Source: a virus (taxonomy: Duplodnaviria > Heunggongvirae > Uroviricota > Caudoviricetes). Taken from it: a DNA stretch of 47,423 nt. The translations under genes and the position numbers were made by a program. The notes below the pieces were generated by a model. The model was not told where the DNA came from and ran no database searches. It saw only the letters and a list, made by a program, of their open reading frames with translations. Below are positions 1 to 12,078 of this stretch, piece by piece (the stretch's first letter is position 1; every line of letters starts with the position of its first letter). The stretch lies in the IMG/VR virus record IMGVR_UViG_2648501802_000003. One strand, given 5' to 3'.

Positions 1-750
1 TCAGTCAATTGTTTTGTTTATTCCATCTGTGACGCCGATTATTTTCTCAAAATAATGAGATGGCGTGACACCATAATAATCTTTAAATGCACATATGAAA
101 TATGAAGTACTGTTATAGCCACATTTCTGGGCTACGACATTGATAGAATAAGAGTTTGAAGTTATGAGTTTTTTTGCATACCTCATCCTAGTATCTCTCA
201 ATATTTCAGTAAATGACGTTCCTTCATCCCTTAATCTTTTTTTTATTAAACTTTCACTCGTATAAATCAATTCCGCAATATCTTTTAAATGCCATTGCCG
301 CTCAATATTAAAACTGATTATTCCAGTAATTTTACAGGTAAATGTATTTATATTTGTTAGTATAAATGAATTTACACTTTCGCGTTTTTTGAACATGGCA
401 AGTAAGGATATACATAGTCTTTCTTTTAACCAAAGGGAGTGTGAGTCTGCTATTTTAATCCCTTCAAACAGAGAAAAAACAAGCGATAATGGAGGTTCCT
501 CTTCAGCAATATAGCCATTCTTATCAAGAGTAAATTTGCCAGGCAGCTCATTATTCACGTCGATAAAAAAGGATAAACATGTTTTCTTATCTATATCAAC
601 AATTCTTAGTTTAGAGGGGCATACTGGTAACTCCCTTCTAATTTTGTCGCTTACAATAAACAATGAATTTTTTTTGAACGAGATAACTCTCCTGTTTATA
701 ATTAAATCAAATGATTGACAGATGAAAACTACGGAGCAAACATAATCCAT
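1..750 (-). CDS. appY: AraC-family transcriptional regulator AppY
   Basis: 249-aa ORF from the track; sequence ([21 protein letters not shown]...) matches my recollection of E. coli AppY with a C-terminal AraC-type HTH; followed by a long AT-rich upstream region (751-1320). Confidence 0.85.
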
Positions 751-1425
751 CTTGCACCTATCATAAAATTAAAACAAGTTGATAGCAGTCAAATAACAAC
801 CAATTAAATACACAATCATAATCAGGATGATGTGCATTTATATTTTTATACACAAAATTATAGTTTGCAAATTTTAATAAATTTCATTTAAGATTAAATT
901 ATTATATGTATATTGTTTTTTATTCTAACGTATTTCAAAGTTACATTTTTCAACGCTTACTATACTTTTTATTAACATAAACTCACTACAACGCACCTGA
1001 AACCTCTTGCTATATATATGTCAACCGTTTGAATTTAAAATAAAAAGAGTATCATTTTTACTTGCATTTCTTATCAAGTCACATTCAACAACAGTAAAAA
1101 AACATTATTAGAACCATTCAATTAACAAAAAACCAACATCCAGCTTGCTTAATTTTTCTTTATTAAACGACATTGAAAATCAATTGATAAAATACATCTA
1201 AACAACCTTTTGGGGCGCAAAAGCATAACATCAAACAAACAAATAACACACCGAAAAAACTCACAATTAATAACCTATGATATACATACTGTTTATTATG
1301 GTTGAATAAGCCACTCGATATCTGGTGCTACGGAAGTGTCCACACGGTTTAGCAGCACCCGATACTTTTTCCAGGCTTCCAGCAACGAGTTTTCTTCCTC
1401 CGTTGCATATACAGCTCACCTTTTT

Positions 1426-1719
1426 TCACCCACGATTAACCAACAGCCAGACCAGCAGACACGCCACCACCGGCACAGCAAAATCCATCAGGCTTGCCAC
1501 ATCCCACGCGCGCGGATCAAAACCGCCCCACCACGGCATATTCATTCGCTTGCCATGCCCGAACATTTCGATCCAGCGATATTCTGCCTGGGTGTGTTCA
1601 CGCGCAATGAAGAACGTACAACCGGCTATCGCCCCGTAAGCCCAGTTTCCGGTAAAAAGACCAACCAGTACCTGCGCAGCCACAGCACAAAGTGCATGAA
1701 GGAAAGGTGTTATATCCAT
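1426..1719 (-). CDS. Hypothetical small membrane protein (about 3 predicted TM segments)
   Basis: 97-aa ORF with strong RBS (AAGGAGGA 5 nt upstream of ATG at 1719); hydrophobic stretches at N-terminus, middle and C-terminus; no family recognised. Confidence 0.5.
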   Translation of the reverse strand: MDITPFLHALCAVAAQVLVGLFTGNWAYGAIAGCTFFIAREHTQAEYRWIEMFGHGKRMNMPWWGGFDPRAWDVASLMDFAVPVVACLLVWLLVNRG

Positions 1720-1729
1720 TATTCCTCCT

Positions 1730-2413
1730 TTATCCGATATCGCTTCGGGAAGTTAATAACAACTTTAATTCTGACTCAAGTTCATCAACTCTTTCTGTCA
1801 GCTTCTGGATATGGTGAATCAGTGGAACAACCAGACGTTCGTACATTACACCTTCGGCAACAAGGCCATTGCTGGAAATAGCTTCAGGAGCATCATCTTC
1901 GTTAGCTGGTCGCCAGTGTACAAACTGAGGGGCAATTTCTCCTACTTCCTCGGCAATCAATCCGTAGAACCCCCAGTCACGCCTGTCATTTTCGCATTGC
2001 GACCTGTACCACACAGGGCGCATCCTGAAAATGACATCGGCGTGCTCTGAATCTATCGTCTCTACTGAATGTTTATAGCGGATAGACGATGTTGACCGCA
2101 GTACAGACGAAATTGCAGGGTCAGGATTAAGATAAAGGTTTGCCGCCGCAGTAGTCGTGCCCACCCCCCATAAATAAAACGCTTCGCGGCCAGTCAGCGG
2201 GTAAAAATCTCCACCATAATTACCGCTTTCGAGAGCATTCACTTCCAGTTTGTTTTTCAGCTTATTATCAACTTCAGTTTTTGTGTATCTGGAGCTGATA
2301 TCCTGCTTTGCACTGGTCATCTCAGTCTGAAGCGTTGATACTTTTCCGTTAATTGAGGAAATATCTCCCTTTAGCGTGGTGATGTCTCCCGGAATTACTG
2401 TTTTTGTAACCAT
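1730..2413 (-). CDS. Tail-fibre-like protein with C-terminal intramolecular chaperone (peptidase S74-like) domain
   Basis: 227-aa ORF; C-terminal half (SSIRYKHSVETID...DWGFYGLIAEEVGEIAPQFVH...LVAEGVMYERLVVPLIHHIQKLTERVDELESELKLL) has the pattern I associate with tail-fibre/tailspike auto-chaperone domains; RBS GGAG upstream of start. Confidence 0.55.
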   Translation of the reverse strand: MVTKTVIPGDITTLKGDISSINGKVSTLQTEMTSAKQDISSRYTKTEVDNKLKNKLEVNALESGNYGGDFYPLTGREAFYLWGVGTTTAAANLYLNPDPAISSVLRSTSSIRYKHSVETIDSEHADVIFRMRPVWYRSQCENDRRDWGFYGLIAEEVGEIAPQFVHWRPANEDDAPEAISSNGLVAEGVMYERLVVPLIHHIQKLTERVDELESELKLLLTSRSDIG

Positions 2414-2425
2414 TGTCTTACTCCA

Positions 2426-2695
2426 TTAAGCCCATGTCCTTACATGCTGATCTGTCGTAATGAAAGGCATTAAAGAAGATATGTTTTTACTGCCATCAAC
2501 AATCCTCATGTTTACGAAAAAACCACCGCGATCAATGCCTGTACATCTTTCGTTTTCTGGCTCCTCGTAATCGATAATGCAGCCAATAACATCAACAAGA
2601 ACCCCATTTTCTTCTTCAAGACTGAACAGGCCACTGTCATATACAATTGCGTTAAACTGTTCTCTGTTATCGAATCGTAATGTTATATCCCGCAT
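2426..2695 (-). CDS. Hypothetical protein translationally coupled to stf
   Basis: 89-aa ORF whose ATG overlaps the stf stop (TAATG); acidic; no family recognised. Confidence 0.45.
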   Translation of the reverse strand: MRDITLRFDNREQFNAIVYDSGLFSLEEENGVLVDVIGCIIDYEEPENERCTGIDRGGFFVNMRIVDGSKNISSLMPFITTDQHVRTWA

Positions 2696-5058
2696 TATAC
2701 GTATTCCTTAAGCTGCGTATCTGACAATGCTCTGTTCCAGAAACGGAGGTTTTTTATATGACCATTAAGGTGTCGTAATCCTGTCGTCGTTTGCCCCCCG
2801 ATACGAATCACGGCAGCTTCACGAATATATTTCCATACTGTTTTTGTTTCTGTGCTTATATGCTTATTTGCAAATGAGCATGTCATGCCGTCAGCCTTAA
2901 CCCTGAATCCCATAACGAGATCTCTTACTCCGCATGACTCATATACACGTCGGTTAGCCCCGCCTATATCGCAATACGAATAACCGTCCTGACTAATAGT
3001 TCCAGAAGAACCAAACCCCATAATAAATGGGCCCCCGGACTGGTGATTTTCTGAATCAATGACACGCGGTGCAGCATTATGAGAAATAAACCAGTTTTTA
3101 TGGACTTCCACCATGAACGTAAAAGGCATGGTATACATATTTTTCATCAGCGGAAATTTACATAAATCTGATGCACGAGTAGCTGGCTCTGTTGTCGTTA
3201 TGATAAAGGATGTTGCACAAGCACCATACTCAAATTGCGGGGTGGTTACTTCTATCCAGTCACCTGTTGCAAAAGACCCCACAGCTCTGTCGGCTGCAAT
3301 TTGCAACTGCGTACCAACCATTCCCCATTCTGGCAGACATTTCAGGGTTGCCTGAAAATATATCCATCCACTACCTGGATCGATTTCAAAGTTTGCTGTT
3401 AATAGCTGGGCATTACCACCCGTAATTTGTAGTTCATGGGTCTGTAATGACAAATAGGCGTCACAAAGGAAAGTGTATCCTTCCGAGTTATACCGTTCAA
3501 AACGGATACGTGCGCGAACATTGAGATCACTTCTTACCCTGAACGACGCGGTAACATACGGACCTTTACTGTACTGATCATCGCCAGTCACATCTATGCC
3601 TTTATTACCAGCAACTGTGCATATATTTCTCCCTGTTGTCGTTCCTGCTATGTCGCTTCCTACTGTGAAACGTCCATATTTAAACTCAAATTCATCTGTT
3701 GATGATGTTACAGATATACCACCGCTTTTATTCCAGGCATCAGGATTAAAACTATTTACGAACATGTTTGTTCGCTGATTCTCTATCAGCAAACCATATT
3801 TTTCAAAACGAGGAACGTTATTCCCTGCCACGGTAATATGCCCGGACTTATCAATATACGTTGCAGATGAAGCCCGGCTAAATTGGCATATGCCATTAAC
3901 AGGCATTGTTATTTCATCACTGCCGATGGTTATTGTTTTATAGCCCGGGGCATACCCTGTTATCGCTTCCAGAGAATCATTCAAGGGTAGCCAGATATCA
4001 GGAAGCGGAGGGACAGAAGCAGGATCAGCGGCATCTTCTGCAATCCGGGCTGCATTCTCTGCTCTTGTTGCGGCTGACGTTGCTTCTGTCTCGCTAGCTG
4101 CTGCTTTTGTTTCACTCGTCTTTGCGTTAGTTTCACTGGCTTTTGCAGCTTTTTGGCTATTAGCTGCCGCTGTTGCAGAACCAGCTGCAGCACTCTCGCT
4201 TTCGGCTGCTGCATCCTGACTGCTTTTCGCTGCAGTTTCGCTGGCTTTGGCATTCGTTTCGCTGGTCTTCGCTGCCGTCTGGCTGGACTTTGCGTTAGTT
4301 TCACTCGTCTTCGCTGCTTTCTGACTGTTAGCCGCAGCAGTTGCTGATCCGGCTGCTGAAGTCGCAGAACCGGCCGCCGCGCTCTCGCTTTCAGCTGCTG
4401 CAGCCTGGCTGTTTTTCGCCGCAGTTTCACTGGCTTTGGCATTCGTTTCGCTGGTTTTCGCTGCCGTCTGGCTGGACTTTGCGTTGGTTTCGCTCGTCTT
4501 TGCGGCTGTCTCGCTGTTTTTCGCGTTGGTTTCTGATTTTTTGGCTGCTGTCGCGGAGTTTGCCGATGCAGTCTGTGAGGTCGCTGCCGCCTGTGCGCTG
4601 TTAGCTGCATTCGTTTCTGAGGTTTTCGCCGCGTTCTTCGATGATGCCGCTGCAGTTTCGGATTTCTTTGCCACCGCTGCGCTCTGAGAGGCGGCTTCGG
4701 CGTTGCGTGCCGCTTCTTCCACCATTGCCTCAAAACGACGCAATGCCTCTGGCATGACATCATCTTCCGTCATGGCACCGAGAAAATCATTCAGCGTACC
4801 TGGTCTGGAACCTTCATAGACGGTAATGGTTCCGGCATGTGAAGGCGGAAAACCTTCAACCAGCAGGGTGACGCTGTACTGGCCATACTCAACATCCATG
4901 CTGTAACGCCCGGCTTCATCCGGATTTTCAGAGGCCACCGTGTTCACCAGTACCGTGGTGCTGTTACGCTTTGCCTTCAGTTGAATAGTGCAGTTCTGTA
5001 TTGGTTTTCCCGCACCATCTTTCAGCACACCTGAGATTTTTACTGCTGCCATATCCAC
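2695..5058 (-). CDS. stf: Side tail fibre protein Stf-like with divergent C-terminal domain
   Basis: 787-aa ORF; N-terminal ~120 aa (AVKISGVLKDGAGKPIQNCTIQLKAKRNSTTV...) resembles lambda Stf as I recall it; central Ala/Ser/Thr-rich repeats; C-terminal ~450 aa unlike lambda Stf. Confidence 0.8.
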   Translation of the reverse strand: MDMAAVKISGVLKDGAGKPIQNCTIQLKAKRNSTTVLVNTVASENPDEAGRYSMDVEYGQYSVTLLVEGFPPSHAGTITVYEGSRPGTLNDFLGAMTEDDVMPEALRRFEAMVEEAARNAEAASQSAAVAKKSETAAASSKNAAKTSETNAANSAQAAATSQTASANSATAAKKSETNAKNSETAAKTSETNAKSSQTAAKTSETNAKASETAAKNSQAAAAESESAAAGSATSAAGSATAAANSQKAAKTSETNAKSSQTAAKTSETNAKASETAAKSSQDAAAESESAAAGSATAAANSQKAAKASETNAKTSETKAAASETEATSAATRAENAARIAEDAADPASVPPLPDIWLPLNDSLEAITGYAPGYKTITIGSDEITMPVNGICQFSRASSATYIDKSGHITVAGNNVPRFEKYGLLIENQRTNMFVNSFNPDAWNKSGGISVTSSTDEFEFKYGRFTVGSDIAGTTTGRNICTVAGNKGIDVTGDDQYSKGPYVTASFRVRSDLNVRARIRFERYNSEGYTFLCDAYLSLQTHELQITGGNAQLLTANFEIDPGSGWIYFQATLKCLPEWGMVGTQLQIAADRAVGSFATGDWIEVTTPQFEYGACATSFIITTTEPATRASDLCKFPLMKNMYTMPFTFMVEVHKNWFISHNAAPRVIDSENHQSGGPFIMGFGSSGTISQDGYSYCDIGGANRRVYESCGVRDLVMGFRVKADGMTCSFANKHISTETKTVWKYIREAAVIRIGGQTTTGLRHLNGHIKNLRFWNRALSDTQLKEYV
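4100..4640 (-). repeat. In-frame tandem repeats inside stf encoding Ala/Ser/Thr-rich shaft (KTSETNAK...AAAESESAAAGSAT unit, two long copies plus shorter units)
   Basis: Protein segment KTSETNAKSSQTAAKTSETNAKASETAAK(N/S)SQ...ESESAAAGSAT occurs twice; many antisense and off-frame ORFs in the track across this DNA reflect the repetition. Confidence 0.55.
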
Positions 5059-5116
5059 TCCACAAAAAAGCCCGCCTGAACCGGCGGGCTGTCATAACAC
5101 TGTGTTACCTGGCTAA

Positions 5117-5716
5117 TCAGAATTTATAACCGACACCCACGATGAAACCGTCAGTGCGCCAGTCGCCACTGCCGGAGCCTTCATAAGCAATATCAATGGC
5201 CACGGATTCGGTCGGGTTAAACTGCACGCCAGCTCCCCACGCCAGAGACGTGTTGCTGTGGCGATCGTCATCACTTCCGGTCAGCACATCGTGCGTTTTC
5301 CCCTTGTTGTCAGTTACGCGGAGATAATCCCCGGAGAACGTCGAAACACGGCTGTAAGCCACACCTGCCATCGCATAAGCACTGAACCATTCATTCACGC
5401 GTACAGATGGCCCCGCCATCATGCTGAACCAGCGGTTACGCACTGAATCTTCATGCCAGCGGGTATCGCTGTAATGCGTTTTTTGCTCATCTTTGGCATT
5501 GGCATAACTGAATGACGTCACCAGCCCCAGCGTGTCCGTAAATTCATAACGGTATTTCACGTTAATGCCCTTCAGGTCATCACTGCCTGGCATATCAGTA
5601 TGGGTCTGAAGATACCCGGCGCTTAGTGTGGACTGATGCTCTGCTGCGCTCGCTGGCGTACCAGCGGCAACCAGCCAGACTACTGCGGACAGAATAACAG
5701 CACATAATTTACGCAT
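5117..5716 (-). CDS. lom: Lom/Ail-family outer membrane protein
   Basis: 199-aa ORF with signal peptide and C-terminus ...IAYEGSGSGDWRTDGFIVGVGYKF matching recalled lambda Lom; position immediately distal to J as in lambda. Confidence 0.8.
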   Translation of the reverse strand: MRKLCAVILSAVVWLVAAGTPASAAEHQSTLSAGYLQTHTDMPGSDDLKGINVKYRYEFTDTLGLVTSFSYANAKDEQKTHYSDTRWHEDSVRNRWFSMMAGPSVRVNEWFSAYAMAGVAYSRVSTFSGDYLRVTDNKGKTHDVLTGSDDDRHSNTSLAWGAGVQFNPTESVAIDIAYEGSGSGDWRTDGFIVGVGYKF

Positions 5717-6358
5717 AATTACCTCTCGCTTTTCTGCAATAAAAAAGGCGTCATTTCTGACGCCCGTATTGGGGTTATAAAATTCAGCTGATACTGATGC
5801 CTGCGGTGGCTTTCTTCATCACCACAACCAGCAAATCGCTGATACTTGCTGTGGGATACCCGCCATTTACCAGCCATGCCGATACAGAAAATTCCAGTGT
5901 CATGACACCACTGCCTGCAGGCATATCAATAACACCCGTATATATCAGCGTATTATCCAGAGCCGTTCGGTTATAAATTTCAGCACCGTTTTTTCGTACT
6001 ATCAGACGGCATGAGGAGTAGATATCAGTATGATCTTGCTCATGTTTAGCGCCACTGAATGCCACCGCCGGGATAACAATTTGCCGGTCAAACGGCTGAT
6101 CGTCATAAACCCTGACGGTAATGGTTCCTGATGGCCACCGCTCCGGTGCACGGGAGTCCCGGGGGAAAGCTTTGCCCACTGTTTTAACGAGATCGCCTTC
6201 AATCTGGTTCGCGGACAGTTTTCCCAGAACCCGGCAGTTCTCGTTAATCGTGACGTTGTTGAGCGTCCCGGAGTTCGCATTCACGTTACCGCTGATATCG
6301 GCATTTTTCGCCGTCAGCCGCCCGTCCGGTGTCAGGGAAAATGCCGGAGGATTACCGC

Positions 6359-9221
6359 CGCTGGTAATGGTGGGAGCCGTCAGATATTTCAGGAACACTT
6401 CGTTCATGAATATCTGATCGCCCTGACCAACAAACATCGGCTTTGTGTTGCCATTCGCAGGATTAACCATCGCAATCCTGTCCGCCGCCAGCAGCACCTG
6501 ACTCTGCATGCCGTCAGGGGTGTTCTCAATACCGGCACCAATACCCGCGATATAAAGGCGTCCGTCCTGCATCTGCTGCAGCTTCACAGCCCACATGCTG
6601 TTCAGGTTATTATTTGTATCAACCTGAACCTTCTGTATCTGCTGGATCGCCGCACTCTGGTCTTCCAGTTTCTTATTGACAGTCTGCGTGATTTCATTGC
6701 TGACATCCGTAATGGACGTCCTGATTTCAGCCAGGTCAGGCGCAAGCTGACCGTTATCAATCTGCGTCCACAGCTCCTGAGCCAGATGTGTTTTCCCTAT
6801 CTCTCCTTTGAAAAAATCCAGGTAACCTTCCGCATCATCGCTCGCCCGACCGATAGCCTCCACGAATGCCGATTTGCCAACAGTATTCACACTGCGGATA
6901 TAAAAGTAATAATCATGGCCCGGTTTGATATTGATACTGGCAGCTATCCAGTACAGCGCCGTGCCAAGATAGCGGGCTGTGGTTTCAACCTGCCTGATAT
7001 CCGCAATCCGCTTTTCCGAGAACCAGAACTCAAACTGTACCGTCGGATCATAAACGGCAAGATGCGGCGTGGCGGTTATCTGAAAATAGCCCGGCGTCAG
7101 CTCAATCCGCGACGGCGCTGCCGGTGCGGCAATCCGGAACGATACCGACGCCGGATCGCCCTGCTGCCCCCACGCATTTACTGCCCGGACTGTCAGCCTG
7201 TAGTTCCCCAGCGCCAGTTGTGTGAAGCGGTAAGTGGTTTCCGTCGTCCGGGCCGTGCTGACCAGCCGCTCACTGCCGTCATCCGCTGCCACGGTCAGGC
7301 GAAGCAGGAAGCTCACGCCCTTCACCACCTTCGGCGTATCCCAGCGCGCCAGCACCTGGTATTCCCCGCTGTCTGCGGTGACTTCGGCAGTCAGGTGCTG
7401 CACTGCTGGCGGCGTGACACCATTCACCGTGCCGCTCTGGTCACCGTCAAAGTGCGCCCCGTTATCCACGATGGCTTCTTTCTCCGGTACATGCTGCACG
7501 GCAGTGATGGCATACGTACCGTCATCGTTCTCACGGATACTCACGCAGCGGAACAGGCGCTGGCGCAGCGTCGGCAGCTTCAGCCCCCACACGCTGTATT
7601 CAGCAACACCGTCAGGAACACGGCTCACTTTTACCTTCACGCCGTCGGTGACGGACTGAACCTCCACGCTGACCGGATTGCCACTTCCGTCAACCAGGCT
7701 TATCAGCGTGGTACCGGAGGATGGCAGCGTGATTTCACGGTCGAGCGTCAGCGTCCGGGTCTGGCTGTTCACCGCCAGCACGCGACCACCGGTGCTGATA
7801 CCGACATAGTCATCATCGCAGATTTCAATGACATCGCCCGGTACATGGCGAAGCCCTTCAGCACCCACGCTGAAATCCACGGTCTGCGTCTCCAGCAGTT
7901 CCGTTTTAATCAGCCACAGCCCGGCGCGGTGTGCCTGCCCCCGGCTGGTACAGCCAAAGGCATCCATCTTCGTGACATTACGACCGTAACGGGCAATGGC
8001 CTGCGTATCTTCAACAAGCTCTGTCGCCGTCTCCCAGCCGTTGTCCGGGTCAATCCAGTTCACCTCAACGGCATTATGGCGGTCCTTCAGGGCGCTGAAG
8101 CTGTAGCGGAACGGCGCGCCATCATCCGGCATCACCACATTACTGCGGTTATAGGTCCACGCCTTATCCGACGGTCGGTCCTGCACGAACGTCAGCGTCT
8201 GCCCGTTCCATACCGGCATACAGCGCATCGCCGAGCAGAAATCACTGAGCACATCCCACGCCTTGCGCTGTGTGGTCAGGTACGCATTACAGGTGATGCG
8301 CGGCTCCGTGCCGCCAAAGCCGTCCGGCACTGACTGGTCGCAGTACTGGCCGATGACATACAGCGCCCATTTGTCCACATCCGCCGCACCAAGACGTTTC
8401 CCCATGCCGTAGCGCGGATGGGTCAGCATATCCCACAGACACCAGGCCATGTTGTTGCTGTATGCTGGCTTAAACGTTCCGTCCCAGATACCGCTGTATT
8501 GTCGAGTCTGCGGGTTATAGTTCGACGGCACCTGCAGAATACGCCCGCGCAGATGATAATTACGGCTCACCTGCTGGCTGCCGAACTGCTCCGAAATCCA
8601 CCTGTACGCCGACCAGTGCCGTGTTCGGGTAGCACTGTTTCACATCGATGATTTCGGTGTATGACGACCAGAGCGTTTTGTTCTGCAGCTGGTCTGGTGT
8701 GCTGTCCGGCGTCATCCTGCGCATCCGGATATTGAACGGGCGCGGCGGCAGGTTATCCACCACCACCGAGGCCAGATACTGCGAGGTGGTTTTGCCCTTA
8801 ATGGTGATGTCTTTTTCCGTCACCCAGCCACCATTACGCTGTATCTGAACCAGCAGGCGGACTTCCGACGGATTCCGGTCCCCCTTTGAGGTGGTTTCCA
8901 CCAGTGCCTGTACACCGAAGGTAAAGCGCAGACGGTCGATGTTTGCCGACGTGATGGTCCGGGTGATCGGCGTGTCATATTTCACTTCCGTACCCAGCAC
9001 CGTCTCGGAGCCGGAGGATTCAAATCCCTCCGGCGGTGACTGCTCCTGCTCACCGGTCCGGAACACCACCGTGACGCCGGAGATATTGGTATTCCCCTCA
9101 CTGTCCAGCACCGGCGTACTGTTCAGCAGCACGCTTTTTAATCCGTCCACCGGACCTTCAACCGGCCCTTCGCTGATGGCATCGATCACACTCAGCAGCT
9201 GCGTGGACTTCAGGTTGTCCT
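6359..9221. repeat. Tandem direct repeat copy 1 within J (one frameshift near 8593)
   Basis: Near-identical to 9222-12078; e.g. plus-frame ORFs 8891..9280 and 8648..8848 translate the same as 11748..12137 and 11505..11705. Confidence 0.8.

Positions 9222-12078
<2,857 letters not shown>

Follow-up and report, generated by a model that had tools for sequence, protein, structure and literature searches.

What takes the place of the side tail fibre genes stf and tfa in a lambda-like prophage of E. coli, and what do the small genes behind the fibre gene contribute? This question is raised by IMG/VR virus record IMGVR_UViG_2648501802_000003, a stretch of 47,423 nucleotides (nt) that we refer to, at its full length, as the window. 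At positions 1426–2695, three small genes follow stf. An initial annotation had proposed that this distal module differs from lambda stf-tfa, and our analysis bears this out: a ConA-like fibre end, a protein of 89 amino acids (aa) and a distal fibre are found instead. We conclude that the region probably encodes a two-component side tail fibre together with one accessory membrane gene. Judged from sequence, the module appears to be the lambdoid counterpart of the proximal/distal lateral fibre known from T5-like phages and Seuratvirus, carried on a lambda Stf anchor.

Gene order and the proximal fibre

Four open reading frames (ORFs) make up the module, all on the minus strand and at the coordinates reported initially:

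2695–5058, minus strand: Stf, proximal side tail fibre, 787 aa
2426–2695, minus strand: acidic accessory protein, 89 aa
1730–2413, minus strand: short distal fibre protein, 227 aa
1426–1719, minus strand: membrane protein with three predicted helices, 97 aa

The stop codon of stf and the start codon of the 89-aa gene overlap in the sequence GTATAATGCGG, the TAATG arrangement that had been read as translational coupling. The 227-aa gene has its own ribosome-binding site (RBS; GGAG, 7 nt upstream) and an ATG. For the 97-aa gene, a very strong RBS had been claimed, and AGGAGG is indeed present 4 nt upstream.

The N-terminus of Stf is lambda-like, as annotated. Residues 5–134 match Pfam phage_tail_N (PF08400; E 3e-66), and a 94-residue solved tail fibre fragment (PDB 9e7m) matches the same end with E 7e-49. 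The remainder of the protein is unlike lambda Stf, also as annotated, and its C-terminus is a GTA-spike/ConA-like domain. The shaft (residues ~135–345) is rich in Ala, Ser and Glu and consists of 7/14-residue repeats, with tandem repeats of 21, 42 and 189 nt in the DNA. A 'head spike fibre' domain was found at residues 424–629 (NCBIfam GTA_spike_fiber, E 2e-12), and a sub-threshold match (E 7e-4) links the last 49 aa to the end of the ConA-like profile Laminin_G_3. Hence a ConA/galectin-like fold is predicted for the C-terminal domain. Stf does not have a C-terminal receptor-binding part of the lambda or T4 gp37 kind that needs an adjacent Tfa (Caudo_TAP). Residues ~240–787 are 43–45% identical to the lateral tail fibres of two virulent siphoviruses, the T5-like phage IrisVonRoten (Bas32) and the Seuratvirus VogelGryff (Bas25), and the identity to IrisVonRoten Gp22 is 45% for residues 133–787 (~650 residues). 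The motif RHL.GH[IV][KR]N[LF]R.W near the C-terminus is common to Stf and Gp22-type fibres.

In the near-identical strain T-HYM1 (NZ_CP141767; locus 5695–8052, equal to window 2695–5058), RefSeq/PGAP gives Stf as a pseudogene N-terminal piece plus a 403-aa coding sequence, 'phage head spike fiber domain'. The repeat shaft is left unannotated there, yet the 787-aa ORF has no internal stop in either sequence.

A separate distal fibre protein

An S74-type chaperone domain had been suspected in the 227-aa protein. Residues 109–165 match positions 1–57 of the 58 in the Pfam profile Peptidase_S74 (PF13884), with 26.8 bits versus a curated cut-off of 22, and the protein also aligns to the chaperone domain of DT57C LtfA (PDB 8hqz; phmmer E 1.7e-5) and to the MYRF ICA domain. 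The initial annotation had made the assignment depend on the catalytic Ser and Lys of S74 domains; both are conserved (Ser109 and Lys114, invariant across homologues), and the assignment stands. The segment that holds them, TSSIRYK, aligns with SDRDLK, SDSRLK, DERLKK and TSGIEYK in ten homologues and 8hqz. The protein thus resembles the endosialidase/T5 pb1-type chaperones (MEROPS, Peptidase_S74) in its above-cut-off match, in having a Ser followed five residues on by a Lys, and in its C-terminal helix. It departs from the family at the second motif residue, which is Ser and not the usual Asp (TSSIRYK versus SDxxxK), and cleavage is putative. The S74 domain is C-terminal, with a coiled-coil-like segment before it. 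Residues ~5–58 look like a trimeric coiled coil or fibre repeat, matching the gp26 needle of P22 and the repeats of LtfA weakly.

The first 15 residues of the protein are MVTKTVIPGDITTLK, versus MVTKTVIPTDITKLK in IrisVonRoten Gp24. They contain the N-terminal motif MVTKTVIPxDIxxLK, which the 227-aa protein has in common with distal fibres and which recurs in lambdoid, T5-like and Seuratvirus genomes. Nine motif positions are invariant across eight divergent distal fibres. Among the loci that we fetched, the motif stood at the very start of the ORF in 178 of 178 occurrences and was never internal. Behind this common N-terminus the bodies vary, giving proteins of 227–586 aa (231–586 aa for those other than the one in the window). 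If the 227-aa protein is cut at Ser109, the mature tip would be ~108 residues long, the shortest form among the distal fibres compared. The gene is intact at 227–234 aa in 50 loci, with a ratio of non-synonymous to synonymous substitution rates (dN/dS) of 0.13–0.39, and is therefore not a decaying fragment. We also considered that the S74 protein might serve Stf as a trans-acting chaperone, and rejected this because homologues carry receptor-binding bodies between the docking segment and the chaperone domain.

Comparison with known fibres and proposed arrangement

A two-component lateral fibre was described for IrisVonRoten in 2025, consisting of proximal Gp22, small Gp23 and distal, T-shaped Gp24. 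According to the BASEL-2 study, Gp24 forms a distal fibre that has an intramolecular chaperone and a T5-like receptor-binding domain, and in an AlphaFold-Multimer model it attaches to proximal Gp22, from whose end a galectin-like domain protrudes; the study does not discuss small Gp23 (Humolli et al., bioRxiv 10.1101/2024.09.12.612763). The window has the same parts. Its proximal fibre is homologous to Gp22 (45% identity over ~650 residues) with a galectin/ConA-like end, and its distal gene is separate, with the conserved N-terminal segment MVTKTVIPxDIxxLK at the start and a T5-like chaperone domain at the end. A ~90-aa protein comes next to the proximal fibre, with overlapping stop and start codons and 33% identity. 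The order fibre, ~90-aa protein, second fibre is identical in the window, IrisVonRoten and VogelGryff, and in both phages the fibre gene overlaps that for a 91–92-aa homologue of the 89-aa protein (30–33% identity). Functional phages such as PhiR55_1, which forms plaques, PhiR49_1 and IdasGreatGrand carry the same four genes. Three differences from IrisVonRoten were evident. The window's anchor is the lambda Stf N-terminal domain, whereas IrisVonRoten uses T5 LtfA/LtfC attachment; the distal fibre in the window is only 227 aa long and has no Gp12-like receptor-binding domain; and a 97-aa membrane gene follows in the window and not in IrisVonRoten.

The branched LtfA/LtfB fibres of DT57C and DT571/2 are similar in that a second fibre protein is attached via the first (PMC4728585, PMC10713586). 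They are similar, too, in having a C-terminal intramolecular chaperone with a Ser-Lys dyad, the LtfA domain to which the 227-aa protein aligns (8hqz). In DT57C, however, LtfA itself bears the S74-type chaperone domain, and for DT57C this comparison showed neither a ~90-aa accessory protein nor a ConA-like end. The LtfB attachment point was inferred genetically, and the cryo-EM map does not resolve LtfB (PMC4728585, PMC10713586). With lambda Stf-Tfa, the module shares its place after J and lom, a nearly identical N-terminal anchor (the 9e7m match, E 7e-49) and a tfa scar, but in the window a ConA-like fibre, together with the 89-aa protein and a distal fibre, replaces the receptor-binding C-terminus and Tfa. 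Literature searches with the RefSeq accessions found no match, and passages on PhiR phages, lambda morons and phage 9g held nothing informative on the gene set.

These comparisons suggest the following arrangement. The lambda-type N-terminus of the 787-aa Stf would fix the proximal fibre to the tail tip; the repeat shaft would come next, then the ConA/galectin-like end. The 89-aa protein, made by coupled translation, would most likely act on the C-terminal domain of Stf, replacing Tfa. We infer that the first 15 residues of the 227-aa protein dock the distal fibre onto the proximal one. Its C-terminal S74 domain would drive trimer folding, after which the Ser109/Lys114 dyad may cut that domain off at Ser109, leaving a tip of ~108 residues. 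The 97-aa gene would be co-transcribed at the end of the late operon and specify a small protein of the inner membrane, whose origin would be a wider bacterial family; we consider it an accessory gene and not a fibre component.

The 89-aa protein

The 89-aa protein is acidic, as described in the initial annotation (pI 4.4; 16 Asp and Glu versus 8 Lys and Arg). It had no match in Pfam, NCBIfam, PADLOC or PDB sequences, and by profile it is not a Tfa, Caudo_TAP or DUF4376 protein; its sole profile match was phrog_1361, a function-unknown family. Hence our claim is that it 'works like Tfa', not that it 'is a Tfa'. A database search with the single sequence returned 4 matches only, owing to an index limitation, and an alignment query was used instead. 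This profile search collected 367 proteins of the family, most of them 'hypothetical' proteins from prophages of E. coli. The fibre gene of T5-like and Seuratvirus phages is directly followed by that of a homologue with 28–37% identity. An AlphaFold model of modest quality, based on a shallow alignment, has a beta-alpha-beta-beta-alpha arrangement (pLDDT 66, on the predicted local distance difference test), and its fold matches were generic.

What lies on either side of the gene is more telling. Among 59 IMG/VR loci of the family, the upstream fibre ORF, where one was recognized, ended in a ConA-like domain in all but a few, and the exceptions were fibres without the motif used to detect that domain. 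The downstream gene was a distal fibre, the 97-aa gene directly, or an integrase. A distal fibre gene was missing from 35 of the 197 loci with an 89-aa gene and a scorable fibre. Phages of the Lambda_2E9 type, for example, keep the 89-aa gene without a distal fibre, and in some prophages it is the last gene before the integrase. This retention ties the gene to the proximal fibre and argues against a role purely as a hinge. We put the chance that the 89-aa protein is a Tfa-like assembly factor or a bound partner of the ConA-like end of Stf at about even. That the 89-aa and 227-aa ORFs are real, conserved genes, as had been assumed, is clear from their intactness and dN/dS.

The 97-aa membrane protein

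The initial annotation had described the 97-aa protein as having three transmembrane helices. AlphaFold predicts three (4–23, 26–53 and 74–96; pLDDT 93.8), but hydropathy is strong only at 5–23 and 76–95, and the middle segment (26–39) is marginal. The ORF, which that annotation had proposed to check for missing helices and for disruption in relatives, has its helices by prediction and is full length in ~111 of 117 relatives; dN/dS is 0.03–0.27. Across the family, positively charged C-terminal tails point to a C-in (N-out/C-in) topology, in which the conserved Trp-rich loop would be on the periplasmic side.

We found no usable match for the protein in Pfam, NCBIfam, PADLOC or PDB sequences, and none of its structural neighbours was informative; ten distant relatives gave empty Pfam scans as well. 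Nor does the protein resemble Cor or Llp: it has no lipobox, starts with MDITPFLHALCAV, is predicted to be helical from residue 4 and matches neither family. Its own family is large: at 90% identity it forms 583 clusters, and 431 representatives remain at 50%. All are ~95–105 aa long, and a Pfam domain was found in none of them. From phages of E. coli through to Sphingomonas and Desulfovibrio, the stretch (A/G)RE.TQAEYRWI..G.G.R.NMPWWGG.D...W....D...P hardly varies. The loop REHTQAEYRW...NMPWWGGFD is invariant. Members with the same core motif occur across Gamma-, Beta- and Alphaproteobacteria as well as Desulfovibrio.

In phages, the family adjoins receptor-binding genes of siphoviruses, myoviruses and podoviruses. 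In lambdoids, the gene comes after the fibre module, and the 89-aa gene is also present in 79 of 80 IMG/VR loci. It comes after the tailspike in P22-like Gally, overlaps the Tfa gene in myovirus phiHAP-1, abuts S74 fibres in HP1/P2-like Aeromonas and Leclercia prophages, and follows J in Comamonas. On a Salmonella enterica contig (3398–8777), a homologue sits between two pectate-lyase-type tailspike genes of a multi-tailspike cluster. The position at the prophage edge, to which the initial annotation had attached meaning, is therefore incidental: in other phages the gene is internal, inside structural gene clusters, and we rejected a significance of the edge on this ground.

The family also has members outside phages. 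In data with one genome per species, many copies have a housekeeping gene upstream on the same strand (LigA, DAHP synthase, pirin, cytidine deaminase and others), and tail-fibre domains were found among the neighbours in few cases (Peptidase_S74 in 3 of 53, DUF4376 in 2 of 53). In Aeromonas, a 55–57% identical homologue lies in a non-phage chromosomal context (locus 7001–7309, and four more loci near 5001). Pirin is upstream of the homologue at 7001–7309; Pfam found pirin upstream in two genome loci, and the same context recurs in several Aeromonas species. Chromosomal relatives include those of sphingomonads and Desulfovibrio. The family is thus not phage-specific. Upstream of the 97-aa gene in the window, no promoter-like site was found, so that the gene is probably on the late transcript.

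In phage Lambda_2E9 (locus 1–2484), the manganese/iron transporter genes sitBCD lie directly beyond the 97-aa gene, which marks the site behind that gene as a cargo insertion spot.

Alternative explanations

Several observations weigh against the two-component fibre. In PhiR47_1, a related distal-fibre gene (locus 1504–2544) is broken in the chaperone domain, with ORFs of 294 and 37 aa versus an intact 346 aa, and this phage still forms plaques and was propagated on ECOR13; at least one host thus does not require the distal fibre. That the 227-aa protein attaches to Stf is proposed by analogy with a complex that is itself predicted and unsolved. In a co-variation test, divergence of the 89-aa protein tracked that of the proximal fibre (rho 0.33) and of the distal fibre (rho 0.36) almost equally, which leaves its partner unsettled. 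The broken gene of PhiR47_1 also speaks for another view, in which the 227-aa ORF is the dead 3' remnant of an older, longer fibre gene, left by cassette recombination and with no function of its own. The protein aligns to the last ~240 positions of a 1385-position PHROG fibre family (phrog_3299), and mosaicism is visible at the locus, as is a tfa scar. Yet a dead remnant would not be expected to have its own RBS and ATG, to stay intact under selection in 50 loci or to keep the catalytic dyad, and separate ORFs of unrelated phages (T5-like and Seuratvirus) begin with the N-terminal motif, which is never internal (178 of 178 occurrences). We therefore rejected this view on the selection, RBS and motif data, and regard it as highly improbable. 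For the 89-aa protein, the alternative is a structural role, without chaperone activity, as a hinge or adaptor between the distal and the proximal fibre, like the T4 gp35/gp36 half-fibre joint. In favour of this, three phage lineages have the gene between two fibre genes, the correlation of its divergence is slightly higher with the distal fibre than with the proximal one, Gp23 of IrisVonRoten bears the annotation 'tail fiber protein', and the best fold match of the model, a weak one, is a small alpha/beta domain of adaptor type. However, the correlations can be explained by simple physical linkage, and the 35 loci that have the gene and lack a distal fibre gene are hard to reconcile with a hinge, which we consider possible but doubtful.

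As for the 97-aa protein, the initial annotation had raised the idea of a superinfection-exclusion or receptor-masking factor, which would protect the lysogen or progeny phage. Exclusion and conversion genes are found behind receptor-binding genes in T5 (llp), phi80 and N15 (cor), P2 (Z/fun) and P22 (gtrABC). The family gene of phiHAP-1 occupies the P2 Z/fun site and that of Gally the P22 gtrABC site. In these phages and in the Aeromonas and Leclercia prophages, the gene is at the classic place for such genes, directly after receptor-binding genes, and this holds for all three morphotypes. The 97-aa protein is also a small membrane protein under purifying selection. But the 97-aa protein has no similarity in sequence or fold to the products of llp, cor, Z/fun or gtrABC, is not a lipoprotein, and, unlike these, belongs to a family with chromosomal, non-phage members. 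Moreover, the gene is tightly packed behind late genes with no promoter-like site upstream, the protein has no PADLOC match, and its near-invariant 35-residue loop resembles a conserved biochemical site more than a fast-evolving exclusion interface. Members with 55–60% identity reside on chromosomes in stable non-phage contexts (pirin, LigA, DAHP synthase or cytidine deaminase upstream), making a dedicated exclusion role less likely than had been supposed; we think it unlikely. A host-derived envelope or membrane protein, carried at a moron hot spot behind fibre genes and with the same activity in chromosomal and phage copies, is a reasonable candidate that falls somewhat short of an even chance. 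It would fit the spread of the core motif over Gamma-, Beta- and Alphaproteobacteria and Desulfovibrio, the housekeeping neighbours of many copies, and the commonness in E. coli genomes of DNA like part of the three-gene region (see below), where the partial matches listed are to the 97-aa gene with or without the 227-aa gene. Against it, the Pfam and NCBIfam searches and the structural neighbours offer no biochemical clue, and the repeated tight coupling to fibre and tailspike genes, with overlapping stop and start codons, exceeds what random insertion would produce. A bolder idea, which we rate as a long shot, is that the protein represents an undescribed small membrane family (RE.TQAEYRW...NMPWWGG.D) recruited from chromosomes by all three morphotypes to act with receptor-binding proteins. 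If this were true, the protein might, for example, alter part of the envelope in such a way that particles with the neighbouring fibre are no longer bound or trapped by lysogens or by lysing cells, which would be a new and general mechanism of exclusion or progeny protection.

The tfa remnant and neighbouring genes

The module is flanked by the following features:

1–750, minus strand: appY, at the start of the window
after appY: AT-rich spacer, GC 0.24–0.31
1296–1406, minus strand: tfa remnant (pseudogene, last 36 codons)
5117–5716, minus strand: lom (outer-membrane protein gene)
from 5784, minus strand: J, split into two ORFs (5784–8570 and 8560–9459)

The late end of the lambdoid prophage begins at ~1407, and the order on the minus strand is J, lom, stf and the 89-aa, 227-aa and 97-aa genes. 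The initial annotation had recognized no Tfa-like assembly protein. Profile searches of the module proteins (Pfam, PHROG, NCBIfam) found no intact Tfa, in agreement with this, and no match to the Cor family, but the 36-codon remnant at 1296–1406 had been overlooked. It matches positions 95–130 of 131 of Pfam Caudo_TAP (E 3e-15), is preceded by an in-frame stop codon, is annotated as a pseudogene by PGAP in NZ_CP141767 and is separated from stf by three other genes. Positions 751–1406 are 98.8% identical to K-12 derivatives, and the match ends exactly at 1406, which identifies the remnant as the tfaX relic adjoining appY. The K-12 tfaX relic marks the recombination scar and the point where sequence in common with the K-12 DLP12 region ends. 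The new module joins on between 1407 and 1425.

Lom lies between J and stf, as in lambda (Pfam Ail_Lom, E 2e-127). Two strong terminator-like GC hairpins with T runs flank it (5069–5090 and 5746–5765, minus strand) and thus set lom apart from J and stf. The split of J is due to a one-base insertion, GGATTTCGGAG in the window versus GGATTCGGAG in T-HYM1, which is otherwise near-identical (window 8560–8640, minus strand). This frameshift reflects either a broken tail-tip gene or a sequencing error. Neither tRNA genes nor Rfam families at gathering score were found in the whole window (1–47423).

Distribution and significance

DNA similar to at least part of 1426–2695 is carried by 1,908 of 5,426 complete E. 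coli genomes (35%), at a median of two places per genome. The partial matches listed cover the 97-aa gene, either by itself or together with the 227/234-aa gene. All three genes in exactly this combination were found in 43 genomes, and the module with the appY flank in 54. The three small genes are intact in most relatives (dN/dS 0.03–0.5), and every gene of the module is intact and evolves under purifying selection. The module is mostly ordinary: its fibre design had been described in T5-like phages before, and E. coli often carries these genes.

The range of E. coli strains open to a lambdoid phage, or to a lambda-based delivery particle, is set by the side tail fibres. Our analysis suggests that proximal/distal fibres are in use in many E. 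coli prophages and that their distal tips, 227–363 aa long in the lambdoid prophage loci that we examined, can be exchanged. These tips would plug in via one conserved 15-residue N-terminus, which offers a practical rule for annotating such 'hypothetical' genes as well as for specificity swaps. The 89-aa and 97-aa proteins, both very common, conserved and uncharacterized, are cheap and well-defined targets for experiment.

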